From NCBI GenBank assembly GCA_963823665.1, contig CAWGMQ010000007.1, forward strand, positions 800,001 through 864,000: a DNA stretch of 64,000 bases, read 5' to 3'. The position numbers and the translations under genes are program-made. The notes under the pieces were generated by a model. It saw nothing but the letters and a program-made list of their open reading frames with translations, searched no databases and was not told the origin of the DNA. This DNA is from an uncultured Planctomycetota bacterium. Lineage in GTDB: Bacteria; Planctomycetota; Planctomycetia; Isosphaerales; Isosphaeraceae. This document shows positions 24,934-44,542 of the stretch, piece after piece; within the stretch, counting starts at the first letter, position 1, and every line of letters starts with the position of its first letter.

Positions 24934-26316
24934 GTGCCCCCTCCCACCGCGTTCATCTCGTACTCGTGGGACAACGACGCGCACAACGACTGGGTCAAGC
25001 GCCTGGCCGCCCGACTCCGCAGCCAAGGGATTAAGTCGATCCTCGACCGCTGGCACGTCGTGCCTGGTGACCCCCTCCCGGCGTTCATGGAAACGTCCAT
25101 CCGGGAGAGCGACTTCGTCATCGCCGTCTGCACGCCCAAATACAAGGAGAAGATGGACAATCGCACCGGCGGCGCGGGTTACGAAGGCGAGATGATGTCG
25201 GCGGAGGCCTCGACGCTCCGGAACAACCGGAAGTTTATCGCCGTCCTTCGCAGCGGGACTCCAGAGACCGCCTTGCCCTCGTGGCGCACGGCCTCATATT
25301 GGATCGACCTCCGCGGCGACCCGTACTCCGAGTTGCACTACCTCGACTTGTTGCAGACGCTCCACGGCGCCCGTGAGACGGCCCCAGACATCGGGTCGGA
25401 CTTCCCGGACTGGAGTGCGCGGAAGGCGAGCCCGTATCCGCTACAACCAGACAGAGCGCCGCCCCCTACGGAGGCACAGCTTCCGCCCGTTCTGAAGGCG
25501 TCTGAACTTCCCCCCGCGGTCCATTTTGATCAGGCCGTGTCCGGTGAAACCGCGACCCCGGACACGGGCTCGCACCCGAGCGAAGCCATCGCTGTCGTAA
25601 GCACCCCCGAGCGCCCCGAGGAACCAGCCCGCCCGCCTTTGTCGAAGACGCGGGGCCTCCGACGGTGGTGGAGGCTCACCTGGCGTCGGGCGGCGGTCGC
25701 CGCCGTCCTGCTTGCCGTGATCGCTTCAGGCTACCTTTTCTTCGAGTCACCCCGCGGGCAGATCATTTTCAACCGTCTGCGCCTCGTTCTCAACCCGGCG
25801 TCGGCTGTGACATGGGGAAACTTGGCATGGAGCTATCGAGCGATAGATGACTTTACGGAGGCGGAAAGGTGCTTCGATAAGGCGGTCCGGCTGGAGCCGG
25901 AGGACGGCGAGCGCCACAGCAGCCGGGCAATTCTCCTTATGAATATGGCAGATTCGCAGGAACCTGAGCTGAAAAGTGCAGAAAGAATCCGGCTCGGGGA
26001 GAAGGCGATCGCGGACTTCGACCGGGCATTCGCCCTCGGGTACGACATGATTTATGGCCACATGGAGAAGGCCACACTCCTGATAAAAACAGGGCACCCA
26101 GAGCTGGCCATACCCGAACTGAACGGGGCGGTCAAGTCGTACGAGGAAGTCGTCCAGAAAACCCGGAGGGATTTGTCCTGGATGCGGGGCGAGGCGTACT
26201 TTCTGCGGGGCGTGGCTTATCTACGGAAGGGCGAGGGCGAAAAGGCGGACGCGGATTTCCGGAAAGCCCAAGAATTCAAATACTGGCGGAATGTAGAAAC
26301 GTTTCATGATTATTAA
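24934..26316 (+). CDS. TIR/SEFIR-domain protein with single TM helix and C-terminal TPRs
   Basis: 'AFISYSWD..AH..WV..LA..LR..GI...LD.W...PGD.LP.FME..I..SDFVIAVCTP.Y......GGAGYEG'; Pro-rich linker; 'RRAAVAAVLLAVIASGYLFF'; TPR helices. Confidence 0.85.
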   Translation: MPPPTAFISYSWDNDAHNDWVKRLAARLRSQGIKSILDRWHVVPGDPLPAFMETSIRESDFVIAVCTPKYKEKMDNRTGGAGYEGEMMSAEASTLRNNRKFIAVLRSGTPETALPSWRTASYWIDLRGDPYSELHYLDLLQTLHGARETAPDIGSDFPDWSARKASPYPLQPDRAPPPTEAQLPPVLKASELPPAVHFDQAVSGETATPDTGSHPSEAIAVVSTPERPEEPARPPLSKTRGLRRWWRLTWRRAAVAAVLLAVIASGYLFFESPRGQIIFNRLRLVLNPASAVTWGNLAWSYRAIDDFTEAERCFDKAVRLEPEDGERHSSRAILLMNMADSQEPELKSAERIRLGEKAIADFDRAFALGYDMIYGHMEKATLLIKTGHPELAIPELNGAVKSYEEVVQKTRRDLSWMRGEAYFLRGVAYLRKGEGEKADADFRKAQEFKYWRNVETFHDY

Positions 26317-28797: not shown

Positions 28798-31700
28798 TCA
28801 ATCCGGATTGCCCGCCAGAACGAACGCAGCCCAATAGTGGGGCGACGCATACGGCCGCTCGGTGTCGCCGCCGGGCGGAATCGCCGCCGCGGGCGTGCGG
28901 GCCTTGCTCCCTTTGCCACGCTCGACGCCTCCTCCTGATAGCTCCGCGGTCAGCGCGAGCGCCTCATCGCGGCGCAGACCACGCAACCACGTCTTCGCCT
29001 CTCGCAGCGCCTCGGCCTTCGGCATCGGAGCATCGAGCCCCTTCCTCTTTCCCAGCAAATTGGCATAGAAACGCTGCATGAGCAAGGCCGTAGCCGTGTC
29101 GTCCACCTTCCAGAGCGACAAACACACGCTCCGCGCGCAGAGATCAACAGCGCCTGCGTGAATCCTACGAACCCCTCTCCGCCGAGATCGCGTCCCAGCG
29201 CCGTCTCGCACGCCGAAAGCGTGACCATTTCGGCCTTCAAGTCCCAATCATGCTGAATTTCGCGCACCAACAGCCGGCCGTCGAACACCGGCTTGTTGGC
29301 CAGAGCCTGCTCGAGTGGGTCAGGCAGGCCCGTTTGAGCCAGGATTATAGCGGAACGAGTGGGCCTATCTTCATCGATCACGCCGTGAGTTGCCAGATGG
29401 ATGAAGCCGTATCTCTCCAGCTCGCCGGAGGTGGCGAGGCGGTCCAGCTCGGGCTCGCTCGCCTCTGTTTCGAGGAGGGTCCGGACTGGCCGATCATCCA
29501 ACTTGAAGAGTCGCGCAAGTGCTTCGATCTCGTATCGCGTCCCCGGAAGCGGGGCGAAATCCTCGTCGCCACTCCGTGCTGCGACGAGCACCTTCTTCAT
29601 CGAGCGGTTCGCGGCGATCGCTTCGGGTGCAGGCCGCGCGTCGATCAACACGCCGAGCTTGCCAGGCGGCAGGCCTCGCTTGGAAGATCGTCCGTCTCGC
29701 CATACTTCCACGACGATCGGTTCTCCGCCTCCGTCGATGACTTTGAGATCCTCGATCTTGTTCAATTTCAGGCCGTTGTAGGCCAGCAAGACATCACCGG
29801 CCTTGAAGCCGTTTTTCGCAGCGCTGGACCCTGGCGCCACGACATTGACGAGGAGGCCATGATCCGGAACCGGCCCCGGATCGCTCGACTTCTCTGGTCG
29901 CTCGTAGACCGGGTCGCCCAGAGCCAACAGGCCCGCACGGCGGACTGGCCGCGTTTGCTCGCGCAGATACTTGAACACCGTCCCCGACGGGGCGTAACTC
30001 ACTACCCGCGTGTCACCGCGGTCGAGCAGCGCCTCGACCGGAATGCCCCTCATCGAATGCGAAGGAAGGACAATCACCGTGCGAGTTGTCGCTCCCAGGG
30101 CTTGCGCGAGCGGCTCGAGTCGCTGAACACGGAGCTTCTCGAGCAGCGGTAGCAAGTCGGAAGAGGTACCTCCTGGCGTCTTGCGCAGCTCTGCCCGAAC
30201 GCGATCCGCGAGCGCGTTATCACCCTTGGTCCAGAGCCCGTTCGGACCAGTCCCGACGATTGGCACCCATGCAGGAACTCCTTCCGGTCGGACGACCACA
30301 CCCCAATGATCGCCGTCGGGATCAGCCGCATTCGGGCCGCGTGGCGCATTATCGACCCAGGAGATCAGGGCAGCATCGGCAGGCAGCGCGGATTGGATCT
30401 TGCTCAGCCTGGCAACCTCGCCCGCGAGCGCACCGTGATCTTTGGCTAGCTTCGTCTGGAACTCACCCAGAGCAATGCTGGCCAGCTCGCGCTCGCGCTT
30501 CAAGTCTTCAAATCGCTTTGCTCTCTCGGTCTGATCAAGGCCTTTGGGCGTTGCTTCCACCAGCCGATCGAGCCGTTCCAGCTCGGTCGTCAGTGCGCGT
30601 AGACGGAGGCGCTCCTCGGGGTTGAGACGGCTGTCATCGCGGGCGGCCAAATCGTCGAGCAACCCGCGGCCGAGTTCTTCTTCAAGCGCCTGCCAGGCCT
30701 CGGCGGGCTGACCGAGCCTGGCAAGCACCGCCGCGAGGGCACGACCCACGGAGCACCGAGCCCCCGCGCGTTCTAGTCCGGTGAACGCAACAAGCCGCCG
30801 CGCCGCGTCCAGGCTCGTCACGGCGCGAATCCAATGCTCGCGCGCTTCAGTGTATTTCCCCTGCGCAGCGAGATTCAATGCCAGCAGGCCCAAGCCAGTG
30901 CCAGTATCCGGGTGGTCGTCTCCCAGCAACTGGAGCTGAATACTCAGCGCCTTCTCGTATAACGGCTGGGCCTGCGCGTACCGCCCTTGGGTGTCGTGGA
31001 TTGACGCCAGATTCTTATAGCTTAGCGCGGTTTCCGGGTGGTCATCGGTAAGCAGCCGGCGACGGATCTGAAGCGCCTTCTCGTAAAGCGGCTGGGCCTG
31101 CGTGTACTTCCCCTGGGCGTCGAGGTTCGCCGCCAGATTGTTGTAGCTTCGTGCGGTGTCAGGATGGTCATCAGTGAAAAGTTGACGGTATATTTCCAGC
31201 GACTTCTCTAACAGGGGCTGGGACTGGATGTACTTCCTCTGGTCGTTGAGAGTTATCGCCAGGTTGTTGAGGCTCAGGGCGGTGTCGGGGTGCGCGTCGG
31301 TAAGTAGACGGCGACGGATTTCCAGCGCCTTCTCATACAGCGCCTGGGCCTGGGCGTACGTCCCCTGGGCATTCAAGTTACGCGCCAGGTTGTTGTAGCC
31401 CGTTGCGACGGTGGGGTGGGCCTCGGTGAGAAGACGACGGTTGATCTCCAACGCCTTCTCGCAAAGCGGCTGGGCCTGGGCATACCTGCCCTGAGAATTC
31501 AGATTGTATGCCACGTTGTTAAAGCTCAGCGCGGTGTCGGGGTGGGCGTCGGTGAGAAGACGGCGACGAATCTCGAGCGCCTTCTCAAGCAGCGGCTGAG
31601 CCTGGGCAAGTTTACCCTGTTGACTGAGGTTCATCCCGACGTTGTTAAAGCTGGCCGCGGTGAAGCGGTGGTTGTCGGTAAGCAAACGTCGGAGGATCTC

Positions 31701-32522
31701 CAGCCCCTTCTCGTAGAACGGCTGAGCCTCGGCGTATTTTCCCTGCGCGTTGAGGTTGACCGCCACATTGTTATAGCTTTCTGCGGTGGCGAAATGTTCG
31801 TCCGTGAGCAGGCGGCGGCGAATCTCAAGCGCTTGCTCGAGGAGTCGCGCGGCCTGGGCGTACTTCCCTTGCGCATGAAGGTTGGTTCCGATGCTGTTGT
31901 AAGTTTCGGCGGTGTCCGGGTGATTCTCGGTAAGCAAGTGGCGGCGGATTTCCAGCGCCTTCTCGTACAGGGCCTCAGCCTCGGTGTACCTCGCCTGGGC
32001 GTTCAGATTGATCGCCAGATCATTGTAGCGTGCTGCGGTGGTGGGATTTTCGTCTGTAAACAGGCGCCTTAGAATATCCAGGGCCTGCTCAAAAAGTGGC
32101 TGGGCTTCCGCGTACTTCCCCTTCCTGTGCAACGCCACGGCCTGCTGATGGATTGTCTGGCTCGACACGACGATCGCGCGATCCTCCTTCGACATCGCAG
32201 CCGTCCGCCGTAGCGAGCGGAGACGGAATTCTTCGGTTACTGTTTCAAAGTGCTTCGCTCCCAGCACTCGCGACCGCAGCTCGAGTAATTCCTCTCCCCG
32301 CGCGATCACCTCGTCCCAGCGATCCGACTCAATCGCGGCGCCGATCGTTCTCTCCAACTCCTCCGCCCGTTTGTAGTCCTCGCCGGTCAGCTTCCGCGCG
32401 CCGGCGACCGCAGACTGCGAGTCCTTGGGAGTTGCCGTTTGGGCGTGCGAACTCGATGCCAGAACCACGCCCGCGAGATTGATCAACAGCCCAATTGAAA
32501 CCGCAGTGCGACAAGCCGTCAT
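28798..32522 (-). CDS. Signal peptide-TPR-CHAT (caspase-like) protease with PDZ-like insert, copy 1; frameshift at ~29138
   Basis: Signal 'MTACRTAVSIGLL...SSSHA|Q'; ten 42-aa TPRs; 'IHLATHG' and 'VTLSACET' His/Cys dyad; 'YASPHYWAAFVLAG' end. One C is missing relative to copy 2. Confidence 0.88.
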
Positions 32523-32553: not shown

Positions 32554-35500
32554 TCAATCCGGATTGCCCGCCAGAACGAACGCAGCCCAATAGTGCGGCG
32601 ACGCATACGGCCGCTCGGTGTCGCCGCCGGGCGGAATCGCCGCCGCGGGCGTGCGGGCCTTGCTCCCCTTGCCACGCTCGACGCCTCCTGATAGCTCGGC
32701 GGTCAGCGCGAGCGCCTCATCGCGGCGCAGACCACGCAACCACGTCTTCGCCTCTCGCAGCGCCTCGGCCTTCGGCATCGGAGCATCGAGCCCCTTCCTC
32801 TTTCCCAGCAAATTGGCATAGAAACGCTGCATGAGCAAGGCCGTAGCCGTGTCGTCCACCTTCCAGAGCGACAAGCACACGCTCCGCGCGCCAGAGATCA
32901 ACAGCGCCTGCGTGAACCCCACGAACCCCTCTCCGCCGAGATCGCGTCCCAGCGCCGTCTCGCACGCCGAAAGCGTGACCATTTCGGCCTTCAAGTCCCA
33001 ATCATGCTGAATTTCGCGCACCGACAGCCGGCCGTCGAACACCGGTTTGTTCTGGATCGCCTGCTCGAGCGGGTCGGGCAATCCGGCCTGAGTCAGGATC
33101 ACTGCCGAGCGCGCGGGTTGGTCTTCGTCGATCACACCGTGGGTGGCCAAATGGATAAAGCCGTACTTCCGAAGCTCACGCGAAGCCGCAATACGCTCCA
33201 GTTCCGGCTCGCTCGCGCCGGCTCCGAGCATGATCCGGGTGGGCCGACCATCCGAATTGAATAGCTGCGCGAGCGACTCGACCTCATACCGTGTGCCTGG
33301 CAAGGGCGGCAACGCCTCCCCGCCGCCACGCGCCGCAACCAGCATCTTTTGAACTGCGCGATGCGCAGCGATCGCCTCGCGAGCCGGCCGCGAATCCAGC
33401 ACCACGCCGAGTTTGCCCGGCTCCACATCACACCGCGATGACTTGCCATCCCTCCAGAAGTCGACTCCGATCGATTTGTTGCCATCCGCGACGACCTTGA
33501 GGTCGTCCTTGACCTTGAGCGCCAATCCATTATAGGCCAGCAGCACGTCTCCCGCTTTCAGGCCGTGCATGGCGGCGTTGGAACGGGGCATTGCCACGTT
33601 GACCAGCAGGCCGTGATCAGGCAACGGTTCCGGATCGCTCGAGGGCTGCGGTTGCTCGTACAGCGGATCGCCGAGCGCCAGCAGTCCCGCATGGCGGTCA
33701 GCCCGAGGCTGCTCTCGGAGGTACTTGAACACCGTGGCTGACGGGGCATAGCTCACCGTCCGGAAGTCATCGAGGGCAAAGAGCGCCTCGATCGGCACAC
33801 CCGCGAGCATATAGGAAGGAAGGATAACCAGCCGGCGGGTTGCCGTGCCCAGGGCCTTTGCCAGCGGATCGAGCCGTTGAGCGCGTAGTTTCGCGAGCAT
33901 GGGTTGAAGGATCGATGCGCCAGCCGGCGCGTTCTTGCGAAGTTCCGTCCTGACACGCTGCGAGAGAGCAACGTCGTCGTCGCTCCATAGCCCGTCCTTA
34001 CCGGTCCCGGTGATTGAGATCCATTCCGGAACGCCTTGAGACCGAACGACCACGCCCCAGTGCTCGCCGCCGGAGTCGGCCGCCGTCGGGCCGAATGGCC
34101 GAATATCCACCCAGGCAACCAGGACGGTGTCGGCCGGCAACGCGGCCTGGATCTCGCTCAGCTTGGCGACCTTCCCCGCCACCGAATCATGCTTCTCGAC
34201 AAGTTTCGTCTGGAATTCACCCAGAGCAACGCTGGCCAGCTCGCGATTGCGTTTCAAGTCCTCGAACCGTTTTGCCCGCTCGACGTTGTCGAGTCCCTTC
34301 GGGGTGGCCTCCACCAACCGATCGAGGCGATCCAGCTCACTCTTCAGCTCGCGAAGGCGGACCTGGTCCGCGGGGCCGAGGCGCTGGTCCTGCCGCGCGG
34401 CCAATTCGTCAAGCAGCCCTCGGCCCAGGCCTTCCTCCAGCGCTTGCCACGCATCGGCCGGTTGGCCCAACCGGGCGAGTACGGCGGCCAGGCAGAGGCG
34501 CGTCGAATTCTTTGTCCCCGCGCGTTCCAGGCCGCTGAAGGCCAACCCCAATCGAGCCTTATCCAGGCTCTTGGCTGCGCTCATCCATCGGTTCCGCGCT
34601 TCGGTGTATCTCTCCTGAGCCGCCAGGTTGGCTGCCAGGCGATTCAAGCTGATGGCGAGATCCGGGTGATCGTCGCTGAGCACGCGGTGGCGGATCTCGA
34701 GCGCTTTCTCATACAGGGGCTGGGCCTGGGCATACTTGCCCTGTCGCGTGAGGTTCGCCCCCAGGTTCTCGTAGCTTCGGGCGGTGCTTGGGTGGTTGTC
34801 GCCAAGCTGCCGGCGGTGGATCTCGAGCGCCTTCTCATAAAGGGACTGCACCTGGGCGTACTTTCCCTGGGCCGTGAGGTTGTTCGCCAGATTGTTGTAG
34901 CCCAAGGCGGTGTCCGCGTGGTCGTCTGTAAGCAATCTCCGTTTAACTTCCAGGGCCTTTTCCAGGAGCGGCTCCGCCTGGGCGTGCTTCCCCTGCGCCT
35001 CGAGGTTAGTCGCCAAGTTGTTCAAGCTGAGGGCGGTGCTCGGGTGACTATCCGGGAGCGCGCGGCGTTTGATTTCCAGGGCCTTCTCCAGGAGCGGCTC
35101 GGCCTCGGAGTACTTCCCCTGGGCGTTCAAGTTCATTCCGACGTTGTTGTAGCTCAGTGCGGTGTCGGCGTGGTCGTCAGTGAGGAGGCGGCGCTTGATT
35201 ACCAGAGCCTTCTCCAGGAGCGGCAGGGCCTCGGCGTACTTCCCTTGGCGGCTCAGGTTCACTGCCAGAGCGTTGTAGCTGGCGGCGGTGTACGGGTGAT
35301 CGTCCGTGAACGCGCGGCGGTGAATCTCGAGCGCCTTCGCGAAGAGCGGCTGCGCCTCGGCGTACTTTCCTCGATAGGCAAGGTTTGCCGCCAGATTGTT
35401 GAAGCTGATGGCGAGATCCGGGTGGCCATCGGCGAGCAACCGGCGGCGCATCTCGAGCGCCTGTTCAAGCACGGGCTGGGCCTGGGCATGTTTCCCCTGA

Positions 35501-36276
35501 GCGTCGAGATTGGTTCCCAGGTTGTTGTACATTGTGGCACGTAACGGGTTATTCTCAGTGAGCAGCTCGCGGTAGATCTCGAGCGCCTTCTCGAGCAGCG
35601 GCTGGGCCTGAGCACGCTTCCCCTGGGCATTCAAGTTCATCGCCACATTGTTGTAGCTCGCTGCCGTTTCGGAATGGAGGTTGGTGAGCAGGCGGCGGCG
35701 AACCTCGAGCGCCTGCTCGAACAGCGGCTGGGCCTGGGTGTACTTCCCCTGGCCGTTCAAGATCGTCGCCAGGTTGTCCAGCAATTCTGCCGTTTCGGGG
35801 TGCTCGTCGGCGAACAGCCGGCGGTGGATCTCGAGCGCCTTTTCGAGCAGCGGACGAGCCTCGGCGTACTTCCCCTGGCTGCGTAAACTCACCGCCTGTT
35901 GATTCAGGGCGCGGCCGGATGCCAGCAAGGCACGGTCCTCGTTCGACATCGCGGCCGTTCGGCGTATCGATTCGAGACGCCATTTTTCGTTCACCGTTTC
36001 AAAGTGCTTCGGCCCCTGGACGCGCAACCGCAAGGCGAGCAGATCCTCCGAAGGAGCGATCGCCTCGTCCCAGCGATCGGCCTTCAGGGCCGCGTTCACA
36101 GCCTTGTCTAGCTCCTCTGCCCGCGTGGCATTATCACCGGTCAGCTCCCGCAATCCCGCGGTGGGAGGCTGTGCTTCTTTCGGAGACGAGGTCTGGGCCG
36201 ACCCGGGTGAGAACGGAAGCGCGGCGACCAGAGTGATCAACAACCCGAACGAAACCACGTTGCGACAAGCGATCAT
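32554..36276 (-). CDS. Signal peptide-TPR-CHAT protease with PDZ-like insert, copy 2 (intact, 1240 aa)
   Basis: Signal peptide, ten 42-aa TPRs, 'GLLVNVAMPRSNAA.HGLKAGDVLLAYNG', 'IHLATHG', 'LSACETALG', 'SLWKVDD'. Confidence 0.93.
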   Translation of the reverse strand: MIACRNVVSFGLLITLVAALPFSPGSAQTSSPKEAQPPTAGLRELTGDNATRAEELDKAVNAALKADRWDEAIAPSEDLLALRLRVQGPKHFETVNEKWRLESIRRTAAMSNEDRALLASGRALNQQAVSLRSQGKYAEARPLLEKALEIHRRLFADEHPETAELLDNLATILNGQGKYTQAQPLFEQALEVRRRLLTNLHSETAASYNNVAMNLNAQGKRAQAQPLLEKALEIYRELLTENNPLRATMYNNLGTNLDAQGKHAQAQPVLEQALEMRRRLLADGHPDLAISFNNLAANLAYRGKYAEAQPLFAKALEIHRRAFTDDHPYTAASYNALAVNLSRQGKYAEALPLLEKALVIKRRLLTDDHADTALSYNNVGMNLNAQGKYSEAEPLLEKALEIKRRALPDSHPSTALSLNNLATNLEAQGKHAQAEPLLEKALEVKRRLLTDDHADTALGYNNLANNLTAQGKYAQVQSLYEKALEIHRRQLGDNHPSTARSYENLGANLTRQGKYAQAQPLYEKALEIRHRVLSDDHPDLAISLNRLAANLAAQERYTEARNRWMSAAKSLDKARLGLAFSGLERAGTKNSTRLCLAAVLARLGQPADAWQALEEGLGRGLLDELAARQDQRLGPADQVRLRELKSELDRLDRLVEATPKGLDNVERAKRFEDLKRNRELASVALGEFQTKLVEKHDSVAGKVAKLSEIQAALPADTVLVAWVDIRPFGPTAADSGGEHWGVVVRSQGVPEWISITGTGKDGLWSDDDVALSQRVRTELRKNAPAGASILQPMLAKLRAQRLDPLAKALGTATRRLVILPSYMLAGVPIEALFALDDFRTVSYAPSATVFKYLREQPRADRHAGLLALGDPLYEQPQPSSDPEPLPDHGLLVNVAMPRSNAAMHGLKAGDVLLAYNGLALKVKDDLKVVADGNKSIGVDFWRDGKSSRCDVEPGKLGVVLDSRPAREAIAAHRAVQKMLVAARGGGEALPPLPGTRYEVESLAQLFNSDGRPTRIMLGAGASEPELERIAASRELRKYGFIHLATHGVIDEDQPARSAVILTQAGLPDPLEQAIQNKPVFDGRLSVREIQHDWDLKAEMVTLSACETALGRDLGGEGFVGFTQALLISGARSVCLSLWKVDDTATALLMQRFYANLLGKRKGLDAPMPKAEALREAKTWLRGLRRDEALALTAELSGGVERGKGSKARTPAAAIPPGGDTERPYASPHYWAAFVLAGNPD

Positions 36277-36309: not shown

Positions 36310-39300
36310 TCAATCAGGATCACCAGCGAGTACAAACGCCGCCCAGTAATGGGGCGATTCGTAGGGCCGACCATTGTCGTCAGTGCCGGGGATCGTGGCC
36401 GGCGTCCGGGCCTTGGCGCCCGTGCCGCGCTCGACGCCGCCCGACAGCTCCGCGGTCAGCGCGAGCACCTCAGTGCGGCGTAGCGTGCGCAGCCAGGTCT
36501 TCGATTCGCGGAGGGCCTCGGCCCTGGGCATTGCCGCTTTGAGCCCTTGGCGCTGGCCCAGGAGGTTGGCATAGAACCGCTGCATCAGCAAGGCCGTCGC
36601 TGTGTCGTCGACTTTCCAGAGCGAGAGGCAGACGCTCCGCGGACCTGAAATCAAAAGCGCCTGCGTGAACCCCACAAATCCTTCCCCGCCCTGGTCGCGG
36701 CCCAGCGCTGTCTCGCAGGCCGAGAGCGTCACCAATTCGGCTTTCAATTCCCAGTCATGCTGGATCTCGCGCACGGAAAGACGGCCGTCGAACACGGGCT
36801 TGTTCTTCAATGCCTGCTCCAGCGGGTCCGGCAGGCCGGTCTGGGTCAGGATCACGGCCGAGCGTGATGGGATATCTTCATTGATTACGCCGTGGGTCGC
36901 CAGATGGATGAAGCCGTATTTGCCGAGCTCCCCCGCGGCGGCGATTCGGTTCAGCTCGGGCTCGCGCGCGTCGGTTTCCAGGAACGTGCGCACGGGTCGA
37001 TCAGCGGATTTGAAGAGTTGGGCGAGTGCGTCGACCTCGTATCGTGTGCCTGGGAGCGGGGCGAAGTCTTCATCGCCGCCGCGTGCTGCCACCAGAACTT
37101 TTTGCAGCTTGCGTCCCTCGGCGATCGCCACTGGGGCCGGTCGTGGATCGATCACCACACCGAGCTTGCCGGGAGCCAGGTCTCGCGCGGACAGCCGGCC
37201 GTCGCGCCAAACCTCGACTGCAATCGGCTTGTCGCCTTCATCGATCGTCTTGAGGTCTTCCTTCTTATTCAACTTCACACCGTTGTACGCCAGCAACACA
37301 TCACCCAATTTGAATCCGTGCTTCGCGGCGTTCGAGCCTGGCACCACGACGTTGACCAGCAGCCCGTTGTCCGGCATCGGCGCGGAGTCACTCGACTTGT
37401 CCGGTCGCTCATAGAGCGGGTCGCCCAGAGCGAGCAAACCGGCGTGGCGGTCGGGGTGGGGCTGCTCGCGCAGGTGTTTGTAGACGGTGGCTGAGGGGGC
37501 GTAGCTCACGGTTCTTGTGTCGTCGGGGGCGAGCAGGGCCTCGATGGGAACTCCCGCCATTAAGCGAGAAGGCAGGACGATGAGCCCCCGACACGTCGTC
37601 GTCAAGGCTTTTCCGAGCGGCTCGAGCCGTTGAGTGCGTAGTTTCTGGAGAAGGGCTTGCTGGTCTGGCGAGCCGCCGGCTGGTGTCTTGCGCAACTCGC
37701 TTCGCACACGCCAGGCGAGCGAAACGTCGCCTTCGGTCCACAGCCCATTCGGGCCGGTCCCGGCGATCGGGAGCCAGACCGGAATGCCCTGCGACCGGAC
37801 GACCACGCCCCAGTGCTCGCCATCGGGGTCGGCCGAATTTGGCCCGGTCGGAGGGATGTCGACCCAGGCGACCAGTGCGGTATCGGCGGGCAGCGCGGCC
37901 TGAATCTCGTTCAGAGTGGCGACCTCGCCGGCCAGAGCGCGGTGATCCTTGGCAAGCTTGGTCTGGAATTCACCGAGCGCAATACTGGCCAGCTCGCGCT
38001 GGCGCTTGAGCTCCTTGAACCGCGTCGCGCGCCCGGCCTGGTCAAGGCCTTTGGGGGTGGTTTCCACCAGCCGGTCGAGTCGCTCGAGTGTCGTTGTCAG
38101 CTCGCGAAGGCGGGCTCGCTCCTCGGCGCGAGCCGCCGGTCCTGGCGGGCTGCCAGCTCGTCGAGCAGGCCCCGGCCCAGGTCTTGCTCCAGCATCTGCC
38201 ACGCCTCGGCCGGCTGGCCGAGCCGGGCCAGCACGGCGGCCAAGGCGGGGCGCACAGAACCCGCGTTCACGGCACGCTCGAGCCCGCTGAAGGCGATCCA
38301 GAGCCGGGCTGCGTCCAGGCCGTTGACGGCATGGAGCCATTGGGCGTGCGCCTCCGCGTACTTCCCCTGGGCACTGAGATTGAACGCGACATAACTGAAG
38401 CTGACCGCCGTGTCGGGGTGGTCGTCGGTGAGCAGACGGCGGCGGATCTCCAGTGCCCGTTCGAAAAGCGGCTGGGCCTCCGCGTACTTCCCCTGCTCCG
38501 TCAGATTCGACGCCAAGCTGTCGTAAGCAACGGCGGTATTGGGGTGGTCGTCGGTAAGCAGCCGGTGGTAGAGCTTCAGAGCCTTCTCGAGCGGCGGCTG
38601 GGCCTCGGCGTACTTCCCCTGGGCGCTGAGGTTGCGCCCGACGTTGTTGTAGTTCCCAGCGGTGTCGGGGTGGTCCTCGGTGAGCAGACGGCGGCGGATC
38701 TCCAGTGCCCGTTCGAAAAGCGGCTGGGCTTCCGCGTACTTCCCCTGGGCGGCGAGGTTGGACGCCAGATTGTTATAGCTCGCGGCCGTGTAGGGATGGT
38801 CGTCGGTAAGCAGACGGCGCAAGATCGCGAGTGCCTGCTCGTACAGCGGCTGGGCCTCCGCGAACTTCCCCTGGGCGGCGAGATTGAACGCCAGATTGTT
38901 ATAGCTCAGGGCCGTTTGGGCATGGTCGTCGGTAAGCAGTCGGCGGTGGATCTCCAGCGCCTTTTCGAATAGCGGCTGGGCCTGGGCGTACTTCCCCTGA
39001 GCGTTCAGATTGGTCGCCACGTTGTTGTAGCTTACCGCGGTGGTGGGGTCGTCGTCGGTGAGCAGCAGCCGCTCGATCTCAAGCGCCTTTTCGTGCAGCG
39101 GCTGCGCCTGAGCGTACCGCCCCTGGGAGTTGAGGTTGTACGCCAGGTTGCTGTAGCTGATAGCCGTGTGGGGGTGATCGTCAGTAAGAATGCGCCGGCG
39201 GATCTCCAGGGCTTTCTCGAAGAAGGGCTGCGCCTGGGCATACTTCCCCAGTCCGTTCAGACTTTTGGCCACGCCGCTGTAGCTTATGGCAGTTTGGGGA

Positions 39301-39782: not shown

Positions 39783-39876
39783 GGTGTGACTCTCCGTGCT
39801 TCAGGGAGTTCAGGATCCGATTAGTTGCTGTTTACATGCATCTGCGTTTTAGTTTCCAGAATCGCTTGCGCGGAAC

Positions 39877-39899
39877 GTCAGGCTGAAAGCCTGACCTAC
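39877..39899 (-). repeat. GTAG-type REP palindrome
   Basis: Minus strand GTAG-GTCAGGCT-TTC-AGCCTGAC: GTAG tetranucleotide followed by a perfect 8-bp stem, intergenic. Confidence 0.75.
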
Positions 39900-39909
39900 T
39901 GCGGCGACT

Positions 39910-41835
39910 TCAACGGCCCTTGGCCGGCTCTACGGGGAATGCTTCGAGAGTCACAACATCGACGCCGGGCAGGCCGCGGAGCCAGGTGCCCAGCTTGGCG
40001 GCGGGCCCTCCCGAGTCGCGAGCCTTCGCGCCTTTGCCTCGCGTTACGGCGGCGGCTTCGGCCAGCAAGGGCTCGAGACCTTGGCCTTCGTCTCGCCAGA
40101 CGACCCCGGCTTCGCACGGCAGCCTCGCCGACCAGGCCATCTGGCCAACGCGCCGCTTCCACTCGCGATACGGCGGCAGCGGCTGGCGCGACACCACCAG
40201 TGCAAACGCACACAACCCCGCCCCCTCGCTCAGCCGGTACCGGTCGTCGCTCTTCGAAGGCGGAGGATAGACAGGCTGCCGCTTCTTGACAGGCTTCGTC
40301 TCCTCGTCGTCAGGGTCGCAAAGCTGATCCGTCCCGTCGGGACGGAAAGCGATCAGATACGAGTAAGCGGGTTCGGAAAGCTCGGCCTCCACCGTCACGT
40401 CGTCGTCCTCGCGCGCGGCGAACGACGTCCGGCCGAGCACCCCGGATCGTTTGTTGTCGTACTTGTCTTCACCGGCAAGCTTGGCGAAATGCGGGATTTC
40501 GAAGCGCGTCACGCGCAGGCGCGGCGGGCGTCGCTGGTTCCGACGCCGGTTGCTGGCTACTCTTCCCCCGGCCGGCGACTGGCGGGACCGACTCGTCCGG
40601 GTCGCTTCCCGAAGACCTCGGCCACAATGCCCAAGCAGGTACACAGAGCGCGAGCAGCACGGCGAGGGTCCCAAAGAGCGGTGCTGCGCGGCGCACGAGC
40701 AGATATTGGCGCAACGCTAGCCGCAACTCGCCGGCGGACTGGAACCTCGCTCTTGGATCAGCCGCCATGGCCTTCAGACACACCCGCTCGATCGTCCTTG
40801 GGATGCGCGGACTGAGCCGGCGCGGCGGGACGATCGATGCCTCACGGGCCTGTTCAATCGTCTTTTCCACCGTCTTGCCCTCATGCGGCGGCTGCCCGGT
40901 CACCAGGTAGTACAGCACCGCCCCCAGCCCGTAGACGTCCGTGCGAACGTCGACCCGCTCACCCTGCCCGCGAGCCTGCTCCGGCGCCATGTAAGGGGGC
41001 GAGCCCGCCAGCCCATGCAGCGATTCACTGGCAAGCGGCACGGCCAGACCGAAGTCGACCAGCCGCGGCAGACCGTCGTCGCCCAGGATGATGTTCTGCG
41101 GCTTGATGTCACGATGCAGCAGGCCGCAGGCATGCACCTCGGCCAGCCCCTCGGCAACCTGGGCGACCACCTTGGTGCAAAACTCGAAGTCAGCCAGCTC
41201 TGCCGCTGTCACGTCTTTGAGCGTGCGGCCGGGAATGTATTCCACGACAAGGTCAATCTCGTCGCCCTGGATCTCAACTCCGTAGCAGGGCGCCACGAAC
41301 GGGCTGCGGACCCGCGCCAAGGCGCGCCCTTCGCTCAGCACGGCGTCACGGCGCCGCTGGAGGCAACGTCGTGGTAACGCTTGAGAACCACCAGACGCTG
41401 CAACGCTCGGTCGCGCGCCAGGTACGTCGTCGCCTGGCCCCCTTTTCCCAGCATCCGGATCAGCTCGTAGCCCGCGGCCATCGCAGCCGGATTCTGCCCG
41501 GCAGTCACGGTGGCCGTCGCCTGGGGATCGGGTTCGGTGTCCTTCAATCCGTCAAAGACGTCACGGACCGCTTCGGCCCGGTCGGGGAATCGAGCAAGAT
41601 AGGAATCCGACTCCGCGGACCGCCCGGCGCGGCGGGCTAGCTCGATGTCGAGGGCCAGCAACTCGCGGAAGAGGCGACTGCGGCTCGATTCGCCGACCAC
41701 GGCGGCGAGCTCATCCTCGATGCGTCGCGGCCGGCCGGCGTTCAAATCCGCCTCGAACCGGTCGCAAACCGCAATGACTCGCGCCAGGTCGTCCGGCGGC
41801 AGCGAATCGTCGTTGGGTCGGCTCGCCAAAGACAT
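39910..41835 (-). CDS. Membrane Ser/Thr protein kinase with C-terminal DUF4384-like extracytoplasmic domain; frameshifts at ~41345 and ~40540
   Basis: Planctomycete N-terminus 'CDRFEA...LFRELLALDIEL...YLARFP'; 'LGKGGQATTY', 'VVLK', 'HRDIKPQN', 'DFGLA', 'YMAPEQ'; TM 'LFGTLAVLLALCVPAWALW'; 'VTVEAELSEPAYSYLIAFRPDG'. Confidence 0.87.
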
Positions 41836-41959
41836 CCTCAGTAACTCCGTCGTCGCAACAAGGGCGGTGCACGCTTCAAGCTCAGCGTGCACCGCCCCCC
41901 GGTGATAGTTATCGTACAGAAGGCCGCGGGTCGCGGCAAAACAATTCGACCCGCCAGGA

Positions 41960-43656
41960 TCAACCCTGGCGATGGTCCTTCAGACCGCGATCGGCATGCC
42001 GCGGGAGATGCCGGACGGGCATGTGGACTCGCGCCTTGCGCAGCGCTTTCTTCGGTAGCGTCTGGCTGGGGCTCGGACTGACAGGCTGCGGGGTCGCGAC
42101 CGAGGGGCTTGGTGTCGACGGACTCGGGTTCGACGGAGTCGAGACCGACGGCGATCCGGAAGGAGTGCCCGACTGTGCCTTCACCTGCGAAGCCGCGGCG
42201 GTGAGCTCTGTAGTTTCGGCCGCGTTGTTGTACGACACAACGAAGCTCGTTCCTGAACTCAAGAGATTCGACGTGATGTCCTGAACGACGGAACTGGTGC
42301 CGATGTCCAGCGCCTGAGACTGCCAGCTTGAGCTGTTGATCGGGCCCGAGACGCCGTCGATCACGGCCGAACAGTTTGAGAACGTCGTACTTCCGAAGTC
42401 AGCCAGATCCGCGAGCGTACCTCCCTGAAGGGTCGGGGCCTCAACGATCCACTCGGCACAACTTCGCTGGGCGAGCGGGCTCTGGTACTGGGCCGACGTG
42501 ACATAGATGCTGAATGAGTCATTGGCCCTGCTGTTGTCAACGATATACAGGAGATATTGACCCGCATGGGCACCCGAGGTGATGTACTGGACCACGCCGG
42601 TCATCGAATCGCCGGGTTCGACCGTCATCTGAGCGATGGGCTGCTCCGTCTGTCCTTTGCCGGACGAGTACATCTCCCACCATGCGACATAGACTGTCTT
42701 GCCGTTTTCCAGCGCTTCCTGGGTCCCGACTTGCTCCACCGTCCCGTTGCCGTAGCCGTCGATTCCCACCCAGACGGATGAGTCGGTGTTGGCACCCGCT
42801 GGCCCGGTGACCGCGGGAACGATCCACGAGCCGACGACTTCTGTCACCGAATTCGGCTGCGGGCTGGAGAGATTGGCCGCAGCGACGTAACCTGACCAGT
42901 TGTTCATTATCACCACATTCGGGTTCGGGGTCGGCGCAGACGACCCACCGATGTAAAAGAGCTCCAGGCCGTTCGACACATTCTCGAATCCGTAGGGCGT
43001 GGCCGCCGTCGCAGGTGGCGTGCCCGTGCCCGTCCACTCACCGTAGCCTTGCGCCAGCGTGACCAGCGTATCATTGCCGGTCGTCGTCGTCGCGTCGAAG
43101 TAAGTCTGGGGCGTCAGACCGCTCGAATACGTCGTCGAGAAGATCTCAGACTGGCCAGGCGCCTCGGTGTAGAGTGTCCAGGGCGAGGACGGGGTCCACC
43201 TGAAGTCGAATCCAACGGTGTAGCTGCTGTTGTTCGTGATCGACACGACGGCATCGGTCGAGGCCGGCGGGGCGCTGGCGGCACGTAGAAGAGGTTCACG
43301 CCGGTTGCCGTATTCTGGAACTCGTAGAGCTTCGCGGCGGATGCCGGCGCCGTGCCAGTTCCAGACCACTCGTTGTACCCCTGCGCCATCGTGACCACCT
43401 CGTCATTGCCAGGCGAGGTCGTCGGGTTGAAGTAAGCCTGAGGCGTGAGGTTGCTCGAATACGCCGTCGACAAGATCTCACCCTGGCCAGGCGCCTCCGA
43501 AAAGGAGCTCCAGGCCGAGGACGGACTCCAACGGAAGTCGAAGCCCACGTTGTACTTGCTCTCGTTCAGGATCTCCACGACCGCCACCGACATCAGGCAA
43601 CGGTCCTCGACACCCTCGAAATTCGGCCGGAAACGCGGTTTGCTGCGAGTTTTCAT
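41960..43656 (-). CDS. Exported G1-family glutamic endopeptidase with two N-terminal repeats; frameshift at ~43283
   Basis: 'MKTRSKPRFRPNFEGVEDRCLMS' export motif; 'NWSGY', 'WVGIDG', 'EQVGT', 'AWWEMY', 'AEWIVEAP', 'LADFG' (catalytic Gln/Glu motifs of family G1). Confidence 0.88.
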
Positions 43657-43765
43657 CGTTGCGTCCCTCAAGAGTTGTTGGTGCACAGCCGGATGACTGG
43701 TCAATTCCCAAGGGTCAACCGCCAACGGCTCGCACGATGCGCAACGAAATCGGGCGTGGGGACTG

Positions 43766-44542
43766 ATGAACTGGCCCGCGACCCGCGATAAAATGCCAAC
43801 CTACCTGGTGCTTCAGTCCCCGAGATGGAGAACCTTCGTGGACGAGACGAGTTCCCCCGGAGACGACGGAAAGGCTCCGCCGATCGACACGCAGGAGCAC
43901 CCGGCTGGATCAGTCACCCAATGGATCGGCGACCTGAAAACCGGCGACGAGCAAGCAGTCCAGCCGCTGTGGGACCGATATTTCGCCAGCTTGGTCCAGC
44001 GGGCGCGGACGAAGCTGCGCGCGATCCGCAGCTCGACCGCGGTCAACGACGAAGAGGACGTCGCGTTAAGCGCGTTCCAGTCGCTGTATGAGGGTATTCG
44101 TGAAGGCCGATTCCCGCGGCTCGAGGACCGCGACGACCTTTGGCGGCTGCTCGTCCACTTGACCGCGTGCAAGGCCGTGGACCGTCATCGCGCCGAAAAT
44201 CGCCAGAAGCGAGGCGGCGGAAAGGCACTGCGAGAAGTCGACCTGCTCGCGGCCGGCGCCTCGGATCTGGACGAGGCGAACCCGCTCGAGCGGATCGTCG
44301 GCAGCGAGCCGAGCCCGGATTTCGCCGCCATGGTCGCCGAAGAATACGCCCACCGGCTCGACGCACTGGGCGACGCGACGTTGCGCCGGATCGCCGAGCT
44401 CAAGCTGGCGTGCCACAGCAACGACGAAATCCGCCAGCAGCTTGGCTGCTCGCTCCGCAGCGTCACGCTCAAGCTCGAGCTCATCCGAAAGATCTGGCGG
44501 GGCGGAAATCCGAAATCCGAAACGCGAAATCCGAAGGCGTGA
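43766..44542 (+). CDS. ECF-type sigma factor of the planctomycete kinase-associated type (true start may be downstream)
   Basis: 'GSVTQWIGDLK.GD..A...LW.RYF..L...AR', 'DEEDVALSAF', 'GRFP.L.DRDDLWRLL', 'QKRGGG', 'EPSPDFAA', C-terminal HTH. Confidence 0.88.
   Translation: MNWPATRDKMPTYLVLQSPRWRTFVDETSSPGDDGKAPPIDTQEHPAGSVTQWIGDLKTGDEQAVQPLWDRYFASLVQRARTKLRAIRSSTAVNDEEDVALSAFQSLYEGIREGRFPRLEDRDDLWRLLVHLTACKAVDRHRAENRQKRGGGKALREVDLLAAGASDLDEANPLERIVGSEPSPDFAAMVAEEYAHRLDALGDATLRRIAELKLACHSNDEIRQQLGCSLRSVTLKLELIRKIWRGGNPKSETRNPKA
44505..44535 (+). repeat. Heptamer tandem repeat (GAAATCC)x4
   Basis: GAAATCC GAAATCC GAAACGC GAAATCC GAA at the junction of two convergent genes. Confidence 0.8.

Follow-up and report, generated by a model that had tools for sequence, protein, structure and literature searches.

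A shared arginine-glycine word in TPR-CHAT proteases and a DUF4384-like receptor kinase of Planctomycetota

The C-terminal domain of a membrane kinase and the tails of three proteases encoded next to it carry one short motif, which raises the question of what the two kinds of protein share it for. The locus lies in a 64,000-nucleotide stretch from an uncultured Isosphaeraceae bacterium, the whole of which is referred to here as the window. A preliminary description gave the motif as V[TE]RG[KT]G[AS]KAR and held that it couples the genes; the portion beginning at the Arg is called the word below. A six-frame search of the window confirmed that the kinase C-terminal domain and all three CHAT protease tails carry the motif, with exactly four matches, all on the minus strand, at 40018-40047 (kinase) and at 36406-36435, 32653-32682, and 28897-28926 (tails), and a relaxed pattern returned the same four places and no others. 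The probability of finding seven fixed letters in the 198-aa domain by chance is ~9e-6, a figure to be taken as a guide only, the pattern having been set post hoc.

Layout of the locus and its proteins

The kinase gene and three TPR-PDZ-CHAT protease genes follow one another in an operon-like run on the minus strand, with an ECF sigma factor gene in divergent orientation. The features are as follows.

39910..41892, minus strand: Ser/Thr kinase gene, in three reading frames (Gly loop 41422-41448, HRD 41093-41116, DFG 41042-41056)
40619..40681, minus strand: single transmembrane helix of the kinase, predicted from sequence
39913..40518, minus strand: DUF4384-like ectodomain, a beta-sandwich and likely reader of the word (Pfam, Atlas, structure model)
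40018..40041, minus strand: kinase ectodomain word RGKGAKAR in an exposed loop; Arg at 40039-40041 is the predicted P1
36310..39782, minus strand: TPR-PDZ-CHAT protease copy 3, with signal peptide and one frameshift
36406..36429, minus strand: copy 3 tail word RGTGAKAR
32554..36276, minus strand: TPR-PDZ-CHAT protease copy 2, intact, 1240 aa (His motif 33136-33153, Cys motif 32956-32973)
32653..32676, minus strand: copy 2 tail word RGKGSKAR, in a disordered loop before the last strand
28798..32522, minus strand: TPR-PDZ-CHAT protease copy 1, with one frameshift; last ~155 codons near-identical to copy 2
28897..28920, minus strand: copy 1 tail word RGKGSKAR
37075-37092 (copy 3), 33322-33339 (copy 2), 29568-29585 (copy 1), minus strand: linker R-[G/S] site after the PDZ domain, VAAR[SG]G
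43766..44542, plus strand: ECF sigma factor, divergent, likely output (Pfam Sigma70_ECF E=8e-33)

With a Pkinase domain containing the Gly loop, HRD, and DFG elements, one transmembrane segment, and a C-terminal ectodomain, the kinase has the layout of a membrane Ser/Thr receptor kinase. Its gene occupies three frames in the assembly, and those of CHAT copies 1 and 3 occupy two frames apiece; these frameshifts are probably assembly indels, because full-length intact homologues exist (~640 aa for the kinase, with ectodomain identity up to 86%). At the DNA level, CHAT copies 1 and 2 are 98–99% identical over the last ~155 codons (32554-33021 vs 28798-29265) and 59–81% identical elsewhere, which in sequence terms marks a recent gene conversion or recombination of their 3′ ends. 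As the three copies are paralogues and two of them are homogenised in this way, the window offers one independent comparison rather than three. Related sequences belong to the Isosphaeraceae, Gemmataceae, and Pirellulaceae. An ECF-like gene is found on the upstream side of the kinase in 55 of 83 loci, and 10 of 45 relatives have a zinc-anti-sigma-like H-x3-C-x2-C element ahead of the kinase.

Several other elements surround the run. A peptidase A4-family gene (41960-43725, minus strand, two frames; Pfam E 2e-30) sits between the ECF and kinase genes and looks inserted, since the ECF gene is ~1.4–1.6 kb closer in close relatives. An inverted repeat (GTCAGGCTTTCAGCCTGAC) lies at 39783-39912, directly past the kinase stop and ahead of the first protease gene. 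At 24934-26316 on the plus strand, 2.5 kb from the protease array, a TIR/SEFIR-TM-TPR protein of defence-like architecture is encoded, and four very long overlapping ORFs with Big_3_5 and NHL repeats (48-21010, plus strand) are probably one or two giant surface proteins split by frameshifts.

The ectodomain matches Pfam DUF4384 (PF14326) with E=3e-4 and 21.2 bits, under the curated cut-off of 27, and its top Atlas clusters are DUF4384 (0.90–0.91); PF14326 is carried by one kinase homologue (P0118), and a hydrophobic transmembrane segment is found in all 99 homologues examined. In the ectodomain model (mean pLDDT 92.7) the word loop is the lowest-confidence block (pLDDT 63), and the kinase's own word is modelled as coil, not as a bound strand. 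Foldseek returned nothing for this model at E≤0.001, and the best structural matches, macroglobulin and Ig-like domains, are not specific (Z 6.5 or less). Among 120 near homologues the loop Arg is kept in 113 of the 116 rows with a residue and the five residues preceding it are variable. In distant kinases (best 150 of 1042 representatives, the ectodomain family forming 1042 clusters at 50% identity) the Arg is present in 136 of 143 and the next residue is G, A, or S in 137, with variation at later residues. The motif as first drawn therefore stands in part: R-[G/S/A] and about seven following residues are conserved, but the leading V, found in 3% of kinase homologues where G occupies 76 of 116, was rejected as a component.

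On the protease side, the CHAT domain is recognised by Pfam with E 1.7e-56, and 2431 CHAT matches were found among 8000 scored. The protease model (mean pLDDT 84) matches Csx29, separase, and DdvA in Foldseek; in a sequence search of solved structures, separase was not among the matches. The dyad motifs HLATHG and LSACET occur in all three copies, and across 49 rows the Cys is invariant and the catalytic His is present in at least 90%. Also invariant is D450 of the SLWKVDD loop, a putative counterpart of separase Asp2151, the S1-pocket residue that binds the P1 Arg; Csx29 has Ser at this place (weak alignment, E 0.12–0.75). All three window proteases start with a signal-peptide-like sequence, and a hydrophobic N-terminus of this kind is found in 81 of 85 full-length proteases, so that the family is predicted from sequence to be exported. 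The tail word (model residues 507–515) has pLDDT under 50. An Arg followed by a small residue, placed in a low-confidence loop in both models and accompanied by an intact His-Cys dyad, fits a predicted cut site.

The tail Arg is kept by all of the best 120 CHAT homologues, and the linker Arg by 119 of them. This second Arg-small site after each PDZ domain, pointed out in the preliminary description, is indeed present and conserved (R-[G/S/A] in 46 of 52 loci), but it shows no co-variation with the kinase word (p 0.42) and was set aside as a part of the code. It is a candidate for a generic maturation site.

Agreement of words within modules

The 123 fetched loci and the window gave 110 readable ectodomain ends, 89 of them unique; 58 of these had a downstream CHAT tail, 57 in frame, and 55 pairs remained after removal of two frameshifted kinase loops. 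Automatic alignment misplaced the Arg column in short loops, and the tail Arg was located by a partner-blind first-R rule and by a best-R score. The former picks the wrong Arg in tails with a doubled R-G, which lowers the signal. Clusters were drawn on ectodomain identity with the loop masked, and each was represented by one locus.

Across the 55 kinase/CHAT pairs, words vary between modules and agree within a module, as in the kinase/tail pairs RGKGVKAR/RGKGTKAR, RGKDAPIR/RGKDAEAR, RGEVRPLA/RGDVRPLA, RGEPRARS/RGEPRAKQ, and RGDILRRE/RGEIVRRE. For 19 clusters the cognate score was 11.3 against 1.6±1.5 for shuffled pairs (p≤0.0005), and cognate pairs exceeded shuffled ones at all thresholds from 55 down to 14 clusters (p≤0.001). 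Identity is enriched at P2′–P8′ only (0.52 and 0.49 at P3′ and P4′, against 0.14 and 0.09), with no signal on the N-terminal side of the Arg (p median 0.31). Within genomes, cognate pairs scored above swapped ones every time (16 of 16 comparisons, 10 genomes), the pairs not being independent. Six or more pairs match poorly, among them L081, L087, L092, L093, L101, and L111. The test suggested for coupling of the genes, namely co-variation of the motif between cognate pairs in other genomes, has accordingly been made, and the motif proves to be both conserved on each side and co-varying. In one clade the match reaches N-terminal of the Arg as a doubled R-G-[T/S/K]-R-G, seen in tails of L085, L086, L092, L094, and G414 (L175–L233) and in the L094 kinase loop.

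A CHAT neighbour accompanies 63 of 69 kinases that carry the motif and one of six that do not (Fisher p 1.5e-4; 12 short and two frameshifted loci dropped), a link that weighs little because the losses amount to one or two events: of the five loci lacking both motif and CHAT gene, four look like relatives of one another and the other, L056, contains a weak CHAT fragment. The kinases of L074, L079, L106, and L121 have neither an R-G word nor a neighbouring CHAT gene; in L074 the conserved acid at ectodomain position 94 is missing as well, and L106 is shifted there.

One genome, G042, encodes two ectodomain kinases and 46 CHAT matches. Of these 46 stretches, 38 were read and 33 gave a word: 28 scattered tails closely match one kinase, and the other five, of R-[GS]-K type, match the second kinase loosely and only at R-[GS]-K (scores 7–11). 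Protease cores in this genome are up to 97% identical across word classes. Among the 28 tails, silent differences per codon come to 0.30 and replacement differences to 0.10 within the word, against 0.13 and 0.69 in the stretch just downstream; by this sequence measure the word is under purifying selection in these paralogues. In a second genome, G414, all 11 tails score higher against their own genome's kinase words than against those of G042. At the sequence level, then, each module in a cell has a word of its own, and a single kinase can be served by many proteases. Taken as sequences, the words are real, selected, and co-evolving between TPR-CHAT proteases of predicted secretion and the DUF4384-like receptor kinase.

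The window's own genome holds further modules. In L167 (5659-16180, contig C11) kinase and tails share only R-G-x-P; this module comprises an ECF factor, a kinase-TM-DUF4384-like protein (RGIPSPKTRKSDDP), and two TPR-CHAT proteins with tails RGTPDFDK, together with a stand-alone DUF4384-like protein whose start resembles that of a lipoprotein, whose word is almost the kinase's (RASPSPKTRKSDDP), and which is possibly a decoy receptor. In L169 (4723-13807) the kinase C-terminal domain has TRDMKRV twice and faces a TPR-CHAT protein with the linker SRDLDR, and L171 (5274-6734) has the linker SRDMDR; the two are possibly an R-D version of the code, sited in the linker.

Which partner reads the word

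With the catalytic core controlled for, tail-word similarity correlates with ectodomain identity (partial r 0.39, p 0.002, 38 loci). The reverse test shows no such relation to the catalytic core (partial r 0.06, p 0.11), and there is none to the N-lobe (0.03) in the same 38 loci, or to the TPRs and linker in 30 loci (0.02, −0.01, −0.02). The helices just ahead of the tail word travel with it slightly (partial r 0.11, p 0.02). In trees of 36 rows, from which L044 and L115 were excluded for local frameshifts, a protease-body clade of 10 rows (support 100) contains three word types, while the ectodomain tree sorts by word. AU tests reject monophyly of the word groups on the body tree (p 2.6e-4 and 1.9e-4) and of the body clade on the ectodomain tree; these p-values are optimistic because the groups were named after identities and trees had been seen. 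Natural chimeras, with protease bodies 83–88% identical and the word swapped, are found in L059, L065, L068, and L090. The first three have cores 86–88% identical to a protease of another word class, L090 being more diverged, and L059 and L047, from the same genome, are 77–97% identical up to residue 460 and 20% identical in the word window. Since the word follows the ectodomain tree and not the protease core or TPRs, the kinase ectodomain, and not the protease active site, is quite probably the reader.

Within the ectodomain, P4′ is weakly coupled with positions 36 and 91 and P6′ with 38 and 89, near the conserved acids D35 and E94. These signals (Z 3–4.6) are unequal between two subclades and include clade markers, and their location is a lead, not a result, pointing to a groove. 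A predicted complex of the ectodomain with the CHAT domain (548 aa, without TPRs) scored 0.00, which counts neither way.

We consider it somewhat better than an even bet (about 0.55) that the motif is a module-specific R-G word serving as an address label, read by the DUF4384-like ectodomain and probably exposed by a predicted cut after the Arg. The strongest competitor, which we regard as unlikely, is docking with no cut at the motif: the uncut word would bind the ectodomain with its Arg as anchor, displacing the kinase loop, and any cut would fall elsewhere or be unneeded. The phylogenetic evidence for an ectodomain reader fits this equally, and D35 and E94 could hold a guanidinium as well as an amine. 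Yet the protease conserves its catalytic dyad and a second, wordless R-[G/S] site, and the match usually starts exactly at the Arg.

Next in order, and also unlikely, is a cognate substrate code of the separase/securin type, akin to the shared cleavage site proposed in the preliminary description, with prime-side subsites of the protease or an exosite of its last helices reading the word, the tail as self-cleavage site or pseudo-substrate, and the kinase loop as substrate. The invariant Arg and small residue that open the word in flexible loops would suit such a code, as would the recognition by Csx29 of the part of Csx30 that lies C-terminal to the cut (PMC10028731, from the accessible text), the DUF4384 domain of one Csx30 group (10.1101/2022.08.17.504292, likewise), and the slight co-variation of the protease tail helices, which could form a small exosite. 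Against it, proteases of different word classes exchange core, N-lobe, PDZ, and TPRs with no change in the word, and the linker R-G site is conserved without a word. In its simplest form, where the cognate active site reads the shared site, the proposal agrees poorly with a word that tracks the ectodomain and neither the protease core nor the TPRs.

It is very improbable that an outside protein, an invader's or a host protease, cuts or binds both loops as bait. The exposed, basic loops and the word's independence of the protease body would be explained, but the word follows ectodomain phylogeny over long distances, 28 paralogues retain one word, and the loci hold no conserved third gene among the markers searched. 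Chance, or the copying of short DNA between neighbouring genes, has in its favour a low-complexity G/K/A/R composition and the gene conversion that does occur between CHAT copies, and is refuted by the many different words that co-vary, the lack of codon-level excess (identity 0.48 for cognate pairs and 0.51 for related pairs that are not cognate), the purifying selection on the word, and its presence in unlinked paralogues.

Proposed mechanism, related systems, and meaning

For the address-label reading, we infer that cleavage at R↓G is Arg-specific, that the ectodomain binds the word, that the free N-terminus plays a part, and that the kinase becomes active and has an ECF output. Exported TPR-CHAT proteases would sense variable cues through divergent TPR arrays. 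Once activated, a protease would cleave exposed loops at R↓[G/S/A] whatever residues follow, those of its own linker and tail among them. The cut tail would stay tethered by the last core strand and expose a new N-terminus, G-x-x-x-x-x-x, which would bind a putative groove of the cognate ectodomain, the reader indicated by phylogeny, that otherwise holds the kinase's own word. By analogy, docking could lead the protease to cut or cluster the kinase and so turn on the adjacent ECF sigma factor. Membership in the family does not in itself imply Arg specificity, because the structural relative Csx29 cuts its substrate Csx30 after Met in the type III-E Craspase (10.1101/2022.08.17.504292), and in the accessible text of a second study alanine scans of the Csx29 cut site revealed no essential residues (PMC10028731). 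Tentatively, and at somewhat short of even odds, we extend the reading to dozens of variable TPR-CHAT sensors that self-cut at R↓G and unmask a tethered peptide as a swappable address for one kinase, with DUF4384 as the peptide receptor whose own latent copy relays the signal once cut.

Several known systems resemble the module in part, as judged from the accessible portions of the sources. In Craspase, a TPR-CHAT protease (Csx29, the best fold match, E 1e-9) acts on a loop in the folded C-terminal domain of the sigma-controlling Csx30, of which one group has DUF4384. Craspase, however, is cytoplasmic, RNA-triggered through Cas7-11, cuts after Met, and involves no kinase, whereas both parts here are predicted to be extracytoplasmic; those portions mention no word shared between Craspase and its substrate. 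The window module does not look like a type III-E Craspase: its proteases have signal-peptide-like N-termini, and the 20 window ORFs scanned gave no Cas-family matches.

DdvA–DdvS of Myxococcus xanthus is similar in that a periplasmic TPR-CHAT protein, a fold match here, controls an ECF sigma factor across the membrane, with self-cleavage proposed (PMC11506125); it differs as a single fused anti-sigma protein, for which the available text describes no kinase, DUF4384, or many-to-one code. The DdvA-type layout of zinc domain, TM, and TPR-CHAT in one chain contrasts with the separate genes and kinase found here. Closest to it is L093 (6280-11556), where one ORF of 1759 aa with a zinc-anti-sigma-like N-terminus fuses kinase, TM segment, ectodomain, TPRs, and CHAT; in L109 (3838-8742) a single ORF fuses kinase, ectodomain, and TPRs. 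The Haliangium type III-B SAVED-CHAT/PCaspase/PCk/PCc-sigma system also clusters a CHAT protease, a Ser/Thr kinase, and a sigma factor, with kinase activation by cleavage hypothesised, but it has a cyclic-oligonucleotide trigger and two proteases, and its kinase could not be cloned or tested (10.1101/2023.06.23.546230, accessible part).

Separase shares the TPR-like and caspase-like fold, and its P1 Arg, its autocleavage with fragments remaining attached, and its own loops that mimic substrate (PMC10317155) parallel what is predicted here, but it reads ExxR N-terminal of the cut, whereas the shared information here is C-terminal; the N-side residues are variable and do not co-vary. IAP-binding motifs offer an analogy without homology: caspase N-termini and Smac AVPI place one N-terminal word of unrelated proteins in the acid-anchored XIAP BIR groove (PMC3760131), although they are eukaryotic, four residues long, and received by an inhibitor rather than a kinase ectodomain. 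In the kinase-associated ECF groups (ECF43, 59–62, 217, 267, 283) the ECF gene adjoins a Ser/Thr kinase and direct phosphorylation is proposed, but the accessible text gives no protease input (PMC7826278). The kinase-DUF4384 architecture has been noted in the Proteo1 family (10.1101/2025.01.12.632604, accessible part). No description of this shared kinase/CHAT word module was found in the literature searched, which included accessible parts of the DUF4384 literature, PMC8195603, and PMC11032199 and left subscription journals largely uncovered. The module adds to protease-to-sigma signalling, and tethered-peptide reading, plausible if not quite probable, would be categorically new.

For the biology of these bacteria, the address word provides DUF4384 with a function that can be tested, allows cut sites and partners to be predicted across the large, untested TPR-CHAT protease family of bacteria, and explains how one genome can wire ~30 variable sensors to one kinase while parallel modules are kept apart. 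If tethered-peptide reading is true, bacteria would have their own equivalent of tethered-ligand and IAP-motif signalling, and DUF4384 would gain a function; if a seven-residue swap does redirect a protease to another receptor, the module would be a programmable transmembrane switch.
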